A DNA stretch of 64,000 nucleotides from an uncultured Rickettsiales bacterium (GCA_964645205.1 CAZYBO010000002.1:182194-246193); one strand, 5' to 3'. Counted from the first letter of the stretch, positions 37,966 through 42,019 are shown. The notes: a model not told the origin generated them from the sequence alone. Program-made: numbers and translations.

Positions 37966-37993
37966 ATTTGTTAGCGTAAAAAACGCTTATTCT

Positions 37994-38019
37994 CGGTATT
38001 ATGTAGCAAGCACACCTAG
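37994..38019. repeat. left terminal inverted repeat
   Basis: CGGTATTATGTAGCAAGCACACCTAG; exact reverse complement of 41576-41601. Confidence 0.8.
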
Positions 38020-38060
38020 CCGCCTATGGGAAACCGTAGGCGGCTTTGCTATGTTGGGGC

Positions 38061-38489
38061 ATGGCAGAATCCCACTCAATCTATGCGCTTAAGCAGAAGC
38101 AAGACGACATCCGTAAAGCCATCCGTGGTTACGAGGTGCTTATCCAACGAGCGCAACGCGATCTCGCACATATAAATGCCACCCTAAAGCTTTTCGAGGC
38201 TACCGGCAAACCTGCCGACTTTCCATCCTATGTTGATCTTGCCCGCGTATTCCGGCGCGGGGAAACCACCGAGATATGTCTTGAGGCTTTGCGTACCGAA
38301 GGGACATTGGATACGCGGGAACTAACCCTGCGTGTCATGCGGTCGAAGGGGCTAGACGAAAGCGACACGATATTGAGAAACGCGGTTGGCTTCCGGGTGA
38401 TTCACGTTATGCGGCGTCATGCTGTACGGGGGATGGTTGTTGCCATAAAGAAAAAGAATCGGGCGTTTGTCTGGCGATTACCGGGTTAA
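38061..38489 (+). CDS. hypothetical protein (passenger)
   Basis: MAESHSIYALKQKQDDIRKAIRGYEVLIQRAQRDLAHINATLKLF... A coiled-coil N-terminus followed by a possible winged-helix-like C-terminus. No family recognised. Confidence 0.55.
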   Translation: MAESHSIYALKQKQDDIRKAIRGYEVLIQRAQRDLAHINATLKLFEATGKPADFPSYVDLARVFRRGETTEICLEALRTEGTLDTRELTLRVMRSKGLDESDTILRNAVGFRVIHVMRRHAVRGMVVAIKKKNRAFVWRLPG

Positions 38490-38538
38490 TTTTATTTTCA
38501 TCATCCTTTTTTTACACTTTTTATGCTAGGATCTCCTT

Positions 38539-38820
38539 ATGTCTGGCCGTCTTATTAAAAAAGAACTAGAGGGCGTTCTCGCGTGGGCGAAGGAAAAAGC
38601 CCACGACGAAAGTAATCCGCCGTGGGCTTGGTTTCAGTACATGAAATTAATTGAAGCAACTGAAACTGTGCTTCAATCCCTCGGCAGCACTATTACCACG
38701 GGGAGTTTACAGCAATCGGTACAACGTCAGGGAAACGTGTACCAACTAAAGGCTTCCACTTCTCCGCAAGATAACGCTCAATCCCATCAGCCTGAAGAGC
38801 GCCCACTGCTGCCCATGTAA
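38539..38820 (+). CDS. hypothetical small protein (passenger; C-terminal third is antisense to the next gene)
   Basis: 93-aa ORF. The first ~50 aa look protein-like; the tail is low complexity. Confidence 0.35.
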   Translation: MSGRLIKKELEGVLAWAKEKAHDESNPPWAWFQYMKLIEATETVLQSLGSTITTGSLQQSVQRQGNVYQLKASTSPQDNAQSHQPEERPLLPM

Positions 38821-39037
38821 CGTATAAGTTACGAGCTGCGTAAGCTTGCACTTCACGATCAAGCCTATGGCAATTTAGCCTATCGGCAATATCACCCTGT
38901 CCTACGCGAACAACTTGCCCCGGAGTCCCGGCGTGCCAGATAATATAAACGCCGAAAGTGTTTACGCTGGAAATGTTGAAGGTATTAAGCGGTAGCCAAG
39001 TATTGGTAGTGCTTTTTATCCACGTTAAATTAGGCAT
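38693..39037 (-). CDS. GIY-YIG-like small protein (passenger)
   Basis: FGVYIIWHAGTPGQVVRVGQGDIADRLNCHR...GIERYL resembles a GIY-YIG nuclease core (GVY...YVGQ...R...H...E). Confidence 0.5.
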   Translation of the reverse strand: MPNLTWIKSTTNTWLPLNTFNISSVNTFGVYIIWHAGTPGQVVRVGQGDIADRLNCHRLDREVQAYAARNLYVTWAAVGALQADGIERYLAEKWKPLVGTRFPDVVPIAVNSPW

Positions 39038-39331
39038 GTTACTTTTCCTTTATGGTTTAAATGAAGCCACAAAAGGAATCGAGATATCTTGACTTGGGGA
39101 TAGACGGGGTTTAAAATCCTTCTTGTTACACCTTGATTCACAAACGTCTCGAAACCTTTTGTGTATCCGAAACGAGGCTAGGGCTTTTGCTCTAGCCTTT
39201 TTCGTTTCAGACGATGTCATTATCGTAGGATCTTCCAATCCGCACAACTAAATATTGTGCTTGACATGACTTTTGCCACTATATCCTGTGGCTATAGGCT
39301 ATAGCGCACCTGTCGAAAGCGTGGCGGGTGA

Positions 39332-40407: not shown

Positions 40408-40626
40408 ATGAGCGATGAATGGCAGAATAAGGTAAAAGGTCTTTTGAAATCAGAGCTTAAGCGCCGGAATATGGGCTATAAAGAACTTACCGAAAAATTG
40501 GCGGAAATCGGTGTGAAGGATAGCGAACGGAACATTGCTAACAAGCTCGCGCGTGGGAGCTTTACCGCTGTGTTCTTTGTGCAATGTTTGGTTGCAATAG
40601 GATGCCAGAATATTGATTTGAAGTAG
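40408..40626 (+). CDS. small helix-turn-helix-like protein (passenger)
   Basis: 72 aa. LKRRNMGYKELTEKLAEIGVKDSERNIANKLARGSFT looks like an HTH DNA-binding unit. Confidence 0.5.
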   Translation: MSDEWQNKVKGLLKSELKRRNMGYKELTEKLAEIGVKDSERNIANKLARGSFTAVFFVQCLVAIGCQNIDLK

Positions 40627-40667
40627 TGTTATTTGCTAATATTCGCCAAAAATGATATTAAATAGAA

Positions 40668-41120
40668 ATGTACAGTTCACTTCACATAGCAAAAAAATAC
40701 CTTGAACTCGGACGCCATGCACAAGATCGGCATCTGACGCCCATGAAGCTTTTGAAGCTGGTGTATATTGCACATGGCTGGATGCTTGGGCTTTATGGTC
40801 GCCCTCTAGTTACAGAAGATATTGAGGCGTGGCAATACGGCCCAGTAATACCAGAGCTATACAGGGAAATGAAAATGTATGGCAATCAACCTGTTTCAGA
40901 CTTAATCAATGTGCCTGATCTTAATTTCCTGCAACAGGAAGAAAGCATAATACAGCAGGTATATCAGAGATACGGTGCATTTACTGGCCCTCAACTATCA
41001 GCAATGACACACGCCAAAGGAACACCTTGGCATCAAATTTGGCATGATAATCCATGGGGGCATATTCCAAATGCATTGATTCAAGCTTATTACCAGCAGC
41101 TTGGTTCTAATGCCGGGTGA
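40668..41120 (+). CDS. Panacea domain (DUF4065, SocA/PanA-like) putative antitoxin
   Basis: LTPMKLLKLVYIAHGWMLGLYGRPLVTEDIEAWQYGPVIPELYREMKMYG matches the DUF4065 core as I recall it (KLxKLLYxA....G.PL....xxAWxxGPVxxxxY). Confidence 0.7.
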   Translation: MYSSLHIAKKYLELGRHAQDRHLTPMKLLKLVYIAHGWMLGLYGRPLVTEDIEAWQYGPVIPELYREMKMYGNQPVSDLINVPDLNFLQQEESIIQQVYQRYGAFTGPQLSAMTHAKGTPWHQIWHDNPWGHIPNALIQAYYQQLGSNAG

Positions 41121-41535
41121 TGTCGAAAAACCCAACGAAATAAAACAGATACCGGATGAAGGCTTTCGTCAGGAAAAGAAGAAAGCCGCCGGTAATACTG
41201 ACAAGCTTTCCATAGAAGAAGAAGGCGCGATTGCAGACAGAGCGCTTGATCGCATCAAAGATAGTGAGGATGAAAACGTCCTTGCCCTCCACAAAGTCTT
41301 TCGTTGGGGGATCAAATTCCTTTTCGCCATTGCTTGCGTTGCTCTGATATATATTCTGTTCATGATGTGTTACCTGATATGCAGGCACATAGGATATATT
41401 TCTGCAGATCCGGTAAAGCTAGAACAGCTATTAACAAGTGTTTGGCATGTACTTTCTGGCGCGGCAATAATTAGCTTCGTGCAGCTTCTGGGTTGGCTAT
41501 TAAAAGCTCAGCACGATAAATCAAGACGCAAATAA
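41110..41535 (+). CDS. two-TM membrane protein, candidate toxin partner of the Panacea gene
   Basis: The ATG overlaps the last 11 nt of the upstream gene. Acidic N-terminal region, then hydrophobic helices WGIKFLFAIACVALIYILFMMCYLI and VWHVLSGAAIISFVQLLGWLL, then a basic tail. Confidence 0.55.
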   Translation: MPGDVEKPNEIKQIPDEGFRQEKKKAAGNTDKLSIEEEGAIADRALDRIKDSEDENVLALHKVFRWGIKFLFAIACVALIYILFMMCYLICRHIGYISADPVKLEQLLTSVWHVLSGAAIISFVQLLGWLLKAQHDKSRRK

Positions 41536-41575
41536 TCTATTAAAACAAAAGCCACCTACGATTGCCCGTAAACTT

Positions 41576-41601
41576 CTAGGTGTGCTTGCTACATAATACC
41601 G
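41576..41601. repeat. right terminal inverted repeat
   Basis: CTAGGTGTGCTTGCTACATAATACCG. Confidence 0.8.
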
Positions 41602-41602
41602 C

Positions 41603-42019
41603 TTATTCTTCATCTATATACTGCTTTTCCAGCTTCTCGTGGCGCTCCTGCGCTTCGATGGTCATGGTGGCGATGGGGCGTGCCTGCAGGCGCTTGATGC
41701 CGATAGGGTCGCCGGTTTCTTCGCAGTAGCCGTAGGTGCCGTCGTCGATGCGCTTCAAGGCGGAGTCGATCTTGCCGATGAGTTTCAGGTAGCGGTTGCG
41801 CGTGCGCAGCTCGACGCCCGCTTCGGTTTCCAGCGACGCGCGGTCGGAAAGATCAGGCTCGCGCCAATTTTCTTCCTTCAGGTTGTTGATGGTTTCCTGC
41901 GATTCGGCGATCAGCTCTTCACGCCACGTTGTCAGCTTCTGGCGGAAATAATCCAGCTGCTTGGCGTTCATGTAAGGTTCTTTTTCGGAAGGCTGGTAAG
42001 TCTTGGACATCGTAACCAT
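41603..42019 (-). CDS. dksA: RNA polymerase-binding transcription factor DksA
   Basis: ...LDYFRQKL...DRASLETEAGVELRTRNR...YGYCEETGDPIGIKRLQARP. The start may be MSKTYQ (42010). Confidence 0.9.
   Translation of the reverse strand: MVTMSKTYQPSEKEPYMNAKQLDYFRQKLTTWREELIAESQETINNLKEENWREPDLSDRASLETEAGVELRTRNRYLKLIGKIDSALKRIDDGTYGYCEETGDPIGIKRLQARPIATMTIEAQERHEKLEKQYIDEE

Follow-up and report, generated by a model that had tools for sequence, protein, structure and literature searches.

Transporter insertion sequences are defined by the carriage of genes along with the insertion sequence (IS), and ISNha5, an example from the IS1595 family, carries transcription regulators (PMC11891212). For the IS1595 family and its ISNha5 group, the references are ISfinder and Siguier, Gagnevin and Chandler (2009; cited in PMC11891212 and PMC8101967). 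Among toxin-antitoxin systems, the PanAT pairs include validated membrane-depolarising PanT toxins that possess a charged N-terminus and C-terminal transmembrane segments, and PanAT loci are often found near transposases (Kurata et al. 2022, PMC8832971). In transposons of the Tn3 family, toxin-antitoxin genes have been described as an integral component (Lima-Mendez et al. 2020, as cited in PMC8832971). Here we analysed a 64,000-nucleotide (nt) stretch of DNA from an uncultured Rickettsiales bacterium (GCA_964645205.1 CAZYBO010000002.1:182194-246193; hereafter the window), in which a 3,608-bp segment lies between the host gene dksA and a strong intrinsic terminator. This segment very probably represents one complete ISNha5-like transporter IS of the IS1595 family, composed of a three-gene core and a cargo of the PanAT type.

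Borders of the element and its relatives

Direct reading of the region revealed two terminal repeats that delimit the element. The left repeat, CGGTATTATGTAGCAAGCACACCTAG, has its exact reverse complement at the right end with a 26/26 match, and the inverted repeat carries on inward to 54 nt at 85%. When up to three mismatches were allowed, these two sites were the only matches in the entire window, compared to an expectation of zero from shuffled sequences. The tip of the element reads CGGTATT and the termini CGGTATTATGTAGCAAG.... Directly outside the repeats, the 8-bp sequence CTTATTCT is present on both sides; given the positions of the repeats, the chance of such an 8/8 match is 4^-8 (~1.5e-5). 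The GC content of the element is 46.8%, compared to 57.6% and 57.0% in the 10 kb on each side. Joining the two flanks in silico yields a predicted empty site of ...GAAGAATAAGCGTTTTTTACGC..., in which the junction between dksA and the neighbouring p138 (37408-37824) reads GAAGAATAAG directly followed by CGTTTTTTACGC.

The center of the element is occupied by a 320-residue DDE transposase, which matches the Pfam family PF12762 (DDE_Tnp_IS1595; 3.3e-44, 151 bits against a cut-off of 27) and the NCBIfam family NF033547 (transpos_IS1595; 1e-48, 166 bits against a cut-off of 75). Its N-terminus matches Pfam PF12760 (Zn_ribbon_IS1595; 1.2e-13, above cut-off), a zinc ribbon that is present at the N-terminus in all IS1595 groups except IS1016. 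An earlier annotation made from the DNA alone (hereafter the sequence-only reading) had proposed a central intact IS1595-type transposase in an AT-richer element with 26-bp perfect repeats and an 8-bp duplication. On re-reading, the repeats and the duplication proved exact at the proposed positions, and the GC content, the domains and the residues described below agree with this assignment.

A scan of one genome per species retrieved more than 460 relatives of the transposase, mostly alphaproteobacterial, from which the best 80, aligned end to end at 63-79% identity and almost exclusively from Alphaproteobacteria, were used for bounding. Anchoring on the terminal motif bounded 67 of these 80 elements, and 54 of the 67 have the same terminal sequence CGGtATTAgGTAGCAA and are flanked by a perfect 8-bp duplication, each at its own site. 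These 54 perfect-duplication relatives range from 2.8 to 8.7 kb in length and have the terminal consensus CGGtATTAgGTAGCAAaCnCACC. Together with the window element, they form a set of 55 elements in which the residues C45, C48, C64, C67, D146, D217, E251 and R258 (E+7) are invariant; all of them are found in the window transposase. In each of the 67 bounded elements, the ends sit at least about 500-680 nt beyond the transposase open reading frame (ORF), so the extra DNA travels with the element, and no bare transposase-only form occurs among them. IS1595-type elements of this kind move as whole units, family-wide. The duplicated targets display a loose palindromic preference, G-A-n-W-W-n-T-C, in GC-rich surroundings.

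The coordinates of the element and of its insertion site are collected in Table 1.

Table 1. Features of the element and of its insertion site, numbered from the first nucleotide of the window
Feature	Position	Strand	Evidence or remark
Host intrinsic terminator	37938..37965	both usable	T-runs on both strands; stem-loop scan and folding
Left target-duplication copy, CTTATTCT	37986..37993		read directly
Left terminal inverted repeat	37994..38047	+	26 nt perfect (37994-38019), 54 nt at 85%; direct reading and repeat search; hairpin in inner part
p142, conserved end-proximal gene, 142 aa	38061..38489	+	predicted long N-terminal helix and C-terminal winged helix-turn-helix
p93, doubtful orphan ORF	38539..38820	+	among called proteins of the NCBI and Logan records
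p114, orphan ORF downstream of transposase, same strand	38693..39037	-	called in one Logan contig only
IS1595-family DDE transposase, 320 aa, apparently intact	39332..40294	-	Pfam, NCBIfam, alignment to relatives
Divergent control region	40295..40407		back-to-back promoter-like sites and 18-nt-arm palindrome (40302-40337)
DUF6471 protein, 72 aa, divergent from transposase	40408..40626	+	Pfam PF20075, 2.3e-30
PanA, Panacea-domain (SocA-like) antitoxin, 150 aa, cargo	40668..41120	+	Pfam PF13274, 5.4e-21, 76 bits against a cut-off of 25.7
p141, candidate PanT-type membrane toxin	41110..41535	+	overlaps the end of PanA by 11 nt
Right terminal inverted repeat	41548..41601	-	26 nt perfect (41576-41601); weak hairpin and U-tract read inward from dksA
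Right target-duplication copy, CTTATTCT	41602..41609		contains the dksA stop codon (41603-41605)
dksA, intact host gene, 138 aa	41603..42019	-	TIGR02420, 1e-42 (above cut-off); Pfam DksA_N, 1.7e-27, and zf-dskA_traR

A strong hairpin (38018-38045; -24.3 kcal/mol, z = -5.0) occupies the inner portion of the left repeat, shortly before the start of p142. It has neither a counterpart at the right end nor conservation in the family, and is peculiar to the window element. The idea that sub-terminal hairpins shield the family against outside transcription was rejected, because the end regions fold no better than internal 50-mers. An Rfam scan detected no RNA family inside the element.

Conserved core genes and variable cargo

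Core genes were distinguished from cargo by clustering all ORFs of the 55 elements. This revealed three genes in fixed positions: the transposase, a small divergent helix-turn-helix gene and an end gene of ~145 aa. The sequence-only reading had regarded the additional ORFs of the window element as passenger genes. Extra genes are indeed carried, but the DUF6471 gene and p142 look like members of the conserved core rather than cargo. In addition, it had counted at least six ORFs beside the transposase; six are present, on both sides of it, but four alone are independently supported.

The small gene directly upstream of and divergent from the transposase encodes a DUF6471 protein in 37 of the 55 elements, including that of the window, and an XRE-type helix-turn-helix protein in 15; a tblastn search found a DUF6471 homologue at this same position in 50 of the 67 bounded elements. 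The control region between the two divergent genes contains promoter-like sites on the minus strand (11/12) and on the plus strand (10/12), and its palindrome stops 7 nt short of the transposase start codon. In this position, palindromes are stronger than in random windows of the same elements (Mann-Whitney p = 8e-7). One type, ATATC-GATG/CATC-GATAT, recurs in DUF6471 elements, whereas a second type, GTCAACG...CGTTGAC, is found in 9 of the 15 XRE elements compared to 5 of the 37 DUF6471 elements. The DUF6471 protein most likely represses the transposase promoter through the palindrome of the window element.

The third core gene, p142, has 26 database homologues and belongs to no Pfam family. 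A p142-like gene is found in 51 of the 55 elements, always at the far end and on the strand opposite to the transposase. The distance between the start of its longest ORF and the tip of the element has a mode of 68 nt, compared to 67 nt for the ATG at 38061 in the window. The AlphaFold2 model of p142 (pLDDT 84.4) has a helix of 47 residues at the N-terminus and a winged helix-turn-helix after it. Structural similarity search using Foldseek retrieved MarR/ArsR/PadR-type regulators and plasmid centromere-binding proteins as the best matches, which are weak (E ~0.03, probability 0.9-1.0). The predicted fold and the fixed position are consistent with a probable role of p142 as a DNA-binding accessory or regulatory protein of the element.

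These features can be extended to the family. It is possible, somewhat short of probable in our view, that this IS1595-type family of more than 460 members, mostly from Alphaproteobacteria, constitutes an uncharacterised three-gene transposition module, in which the DUF6471 protein would act as an operator-binding repressor and p142 as an end-binding accessory factor, and which would shuttle toxin-antitoxin, restriction-modification and other defence-type cargo. If true, DUF6471 would gain a function, and a new family of accessory proteins would be established. The survey suggests testable roles for both, namely that of a transposase repressor for DUF6471 and that of an element-encoded DNA-binding factor for the unnamed winged-helix proteins. 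We consider this proposed family-level picture, which comprises the three-gene core, the operator and the end-proximal winged-helix gene and extends beyond the sequence-only reading, as the most interesting lead of the analysis.

The cargo of the window element is headed by PanA, which also matches PHROG 1281 (4.9e-41). Assignment of PanA as the SocA equivalog, a type VI antitoxin (NCBIfam NF047745), was rejected, as it reaches 87.3 bits against a cut-off of 190. The partner p141 has a charged N-terminal half and, by hydropathy, two hydrophobic segments at residues 62-97 and 113-132; it also yields a weak PADLOC match to KwaA (E = 0.015). A full HMMER search of 1.84 billion representative proteins retrieved 22 distant homologues of p141, and a word-indexed search returned p141 itself alone. 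In all four contexts that were checked, the p141 homologue directly follows a Panacea gene of 149-152 aa with an overlap of 8-11 nt. The four contexts otherwise differ, comprising a plasmid-like locus with NikA, another IS1595 transposase and short contigs, and none of the four bears the terminal ends of the window family. Identity to the window proteins amounts to 54-60% for the PanA partners and to 28-40% for the toxins. The linkage of PanA with p141-type genes is conserved, which bears out the earlier proposal of a Panacea antitoxin with a downstream partner inside the element. By analogy with the PanAT pairs, p141 is probably a depolarising PanT-type toxin that would be neutralised by PanA through direct binding.

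Public gene calls at this locus are inconsistent between contigs. The PanA and p141 proteins are present only in a Logan contig and absent from the NCBI record. The calls for a 34.6-kb Logan contig (L001/L002) place a 93-aa ORF at 41107-41388 on the minus strand, antisense to p141, and omit both PanA and p141. We take the plus-strand PanA and p141 to be real genes because such pairs are conserved in other loci.

The two orphan ORFs p93 and p114 overlap convergently by 128 nt on opposite strands, and probably no more than one of the two is a genuine gene. Neither has a homologue or family in Pfam, NCBIfam, PADLOC, PHROGs, the PDB sequences, a plasmid tblastn search or local phmmer and tblastn searches of all fetched loci. 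The two ORFs are flanked by facing terminator-like hairpins at 38597-38629 (minus strand) and 39174-39199 (plus strand). As the former (38629-38597) lies within the frame of p93, this ORF is doubtful. A by-eye likeness of p114 to GIY-YIG nucleases was rejected, as no match was found in Pfam, NCBIfam or the PDB sequences, and its single-sequence AlphaFold2 model (pLDDT 38.7) is unusable.

The 131 cargo ORFs of the related elements are diverse. Panacea is their commonest domain (6/131), and modules for DNA methylation and restriction (methyltransferase/restriction) and a set of arsenic-resistance genes come next. The majority of these ORFs lack a Pfam match. Moreover, the GC content of the window element is mosaic, with 43-44% in the block from DUF6471 to PanA and p141, compared to 52-53% in the transposase and p142.

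We propose that the DDE transposase, which bears an N-terminal zinc ribbon, recognises both 26-nt termini and inserted the whole unit at the 3′ end of dksA, where it duplicated the AT-rich 8-bp target CTTATTCT. The core would consist of the transposase, the divergent 72-aa DUF6471 repressor, which would act on the transposase promoter through the 18-nt-arm palindrome, and the 142-aa protein p142 with its coiled-coil and winged-helix parts. The start codon of the latter has a fixed distance of ~68 nt to one tip, and the protein probably binds DNA at this end of the element or close to it. Variable cargo would sit between the core and the ends, represented here by PanA and a small membrane protein, and one or two of the orphan ORFs may belong to it as well. 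The role of the PanA-p141 pair would be either addiction, which stabilises the element, or defence against phages.

Possible effect on dksA, age of the insertion and host neighbourhood

The coding sequence of dksA ends with ...GAT GAA GAA TAA, and the C-terminus of the encoded protein, ...QYIDEE, is the same as in the relatives L084 and L086. The host terminator, folded on the dksA strand, has an energy of -28.2 kcal/mol (z = -5.6), which 0 of 200 shuffles reached, and runs into UUUUUUUG (U7). It is located 20 nt from the left duplication copy, and the insertion has placed it 3,616 bp further from dksA. In the flanks joined in silico, the TAA is followed by ~21-27 nt and then by the terminator stem. 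As the sequence-only reading had stated, the duplication holds the stop codon of an intact dksA, and the element separates this gene from its terminator. Its statement that the dksA transcript must read into the element stands in part. The strong terminator is indeed displaced, but "must" softens to "may", because a weak hairpin in the right repeat may stop some of the read-through. Within the first 65 nt of the element as read from dksA, this hairpin (-10.4 kcal/mol, z = -1.1) is followed by CUUUUGUUUUAA, which places hairpin and U-rich tract 20-65 nt past the stop codon. A scan of the dksA strand revealed no other terminator-like site before 38629-38597.

Having lost the adjacent strong terminator, the dksA transcript probably ends in part at this weak hairpin with its U-tract, or alternatively by Rho-dependent termination on the untranslated antisense stretch. 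Transcripts that pass these points would first cover p141, PanA and DUF6471 in antisense and then enter, in the sense direction, the transposase, which shares its strand with dksA. The earlier suggestion of antisense or sense read-through over the PanA-toxin pair holds for the antisense direction, over the DUF6471-PanA-toxin block; sense transcription would begin only after ~1.3 kb, in the transposase.

From these features, one might argue that the insertion regulates its host, in that the loss of the terminator alters the 3′ end, stability or level of the dksA mRNA, and that read-through modulates the element through antisense RNA over the toxin-antitoxin operon and sense RNA into the transposase. 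We consider this rather unlikely. The 3.6-kb distance to the strong terminator, the lack of a convincing minus-strand terminator before 38629-38597 and the shared strand of dksA and transposase are in its favour, whereas the hairpin with its U-rich tract shortly past the stop codon, and Rho, which is expected to act on untranslated RNA, would limit such read-through. Altered 3′-end formation of the dksA transcript would be the sole plausible consequence for the host.

The sequence-only reading had also called the insertion recent, which is not borne out. Exact look-ups of DksA and the transposase returned three public contigs, all 100% identical to the window, and the empty-site pattern was found in none of the metagenome contigs searched. 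Homologues of DksA reach at most 92% identity, and the loci that hold them diverge downstream of dksA. A second or near-identical copy was not found: the window has no further repeat matches, and in the 56 metagenome contigs that share the 23-nt tip, the best transposase is 77% identical. At 90% identity, all proteins of the element are singletons, known from one locus only. The element was assembled unbroken in three assemblies, which suggests a single copy in that genome. A perfect duplication does not date the insertion, because it is perfect in 54 of the 67 bounded family members, and the low GC content argues for a foreign origin only, not for recency.

An old, fixed insertion that is no longer mobile and merely inherited appears rather unlikely to us. 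The single known locus with its three identical contigs, the singleton proteins, the 77-79% identity of the closest transposases elsewhere and the variation of the dksA-mrdA region in relatives are all consistent with it. Against it stand the intact transposase, both intact ends and the intact duplication, in addition to a GC content 10 points under that of the host, which reveals no drift toward it; no sampled relative is close enough for dating.

A composite locus, in which a plain IS1595 element happens to lie beside unrelated genes of the host or of other mobile DNA and the outer repeats do not form one unit, is highly improbable: the mosaic GC content and the occurrence of PanA/p141-type pairs outside this element family fit it, but the 64-kb window contains a single transposase and a single pair of repeats, which the 8-bp duplication immediately flanks, no inner repeats with a duplication were found near the transposase, 54 relatives have the same ends around the same core and cargo with perfect duplications of their own, and in all 67 bounded elements the ends are distant from the transposase.

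Some points nonetheless weigh against the interpretation of the whole feature as one ISNha5-like transporter IS with PanAT-type cargo. The duplication, which in the orientation of the transposase reads AGAATAAG, lies in the AT-rich stop-codon region of dksA and matches the target consensus of the family loosely. The association of palindrome type and regulator is partial, with the strict DUF6471-type motif in 7 of the 37 elements, and the fold matches that point to a DNA-binding role of p142 are weak. p141 has no experimentally studied relative to which its sequence could be aligned, and the ISNha5 label follows the ISfinder subgroup criteria rather than a comparison with the ISNha5 sequence. 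Finally, no empty site and no second copy were found that would demonstrate mobility of the window element itself. Overall, the locus represents a clean, fully bounded IS1595-family transporter IS in an alphaproteobacterial chromosome, an ordinary member of a known family that overturns nothing in current understanding.

The host is alphaproteobacterial, as indicated by the fliX/flg/mre synteny and by a permuted transfer-messenger RNA gene of the alpha type in the window. This two-piece gene is located at 16277-16752 on the minus strand and encodes the tag peptide ANDNQAFVAANDNTVVEVRAAA. In relatives, dksA is convergent with mrdA, and the gap between them varies from 3 nt (L084 and L086) to an 87-aa ORF (L085) and a 157-aa homologue of p138 (L087). 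The dksA-mrdA region is variable and silent on the timing of the insertion. In each of three independent assemblies (L088-L090), the sequence breaks off 167 nt beyond dksA, where a repeat may be present. On the other side of dksA, a gene for a DUF2207 membrane protein (42146-42946, minus strand) is located between fliX and dksA and is absent from the syntenic loci L084-L090; it may represent a second strain-specific acquisition beside dksA. The GC content dips to ~51% around 41800-42400, and a further local dip to ~48% at 45000-45400 is accompanied by strong positive GC and AT skew. In L084, a DUF7790 gene (8904-10253) between mreC and mreB marks a variable point in an otherwise conserved cluster.

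Comparison with described systems

Compared to Tn3-family transposons, the window element shares a toxin-antitoxin module inside a transposon, where it plausibly has a stabilising role. They differ in that the window element has a DDE enzyme of the IS1595 type and neither a resolvase nor a res site. Moreover, its toxin-antitoxin pair belongs to the variable cargo, as Panacea genes are found in some members of the family only.

The cargo resembles the PanAT pairs in both organization and location. A Panacea antitoxin of ~150 aa precedes and overlaps a gene for a small protein whose N-terminus is charged and whose C-terminal part holds hydrophobic segments, and the pair is located near a transposase. 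However, p141 belongs to a rare family and could not be aligned with the validated toxins of E. coli, Bartonella apis and Helicobacter, and the window PanA scores below the NCBIfam cut-off for SocA. The window pair adds a rare candidate family of membrane toxins to the Panacea network. Its combination with the orphan ORFs has no match in the 67 bounded related elements.

No near-identical named insertion sequence was available to compare with the window element; its closest relatives from public genomes reach at most 79% identity at the protein level, and plasmid annotations read "IS1595 family transposase" only. The window element shares with the ISNha5 group the DDE_Tnp_IS1595 domain together with the N-terminal zinc ribbon, as well as the 8-bp duplication. 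In the ISfinder classification, this group is characterised by a CGGnnTT tip, a length of 3.45-7.9 kb, passenger genes, an 8-bp duplication and a D-D-E triad with R or K at +7. By these criteria, the two share the CGGnnTT ends, the length range, the regulator genes and the D-D-E triad with R at +7: the tip CGGTATT, the length of 3,608 bp and the residues E251 and R258 of the window element all fit the ISNha5 group.

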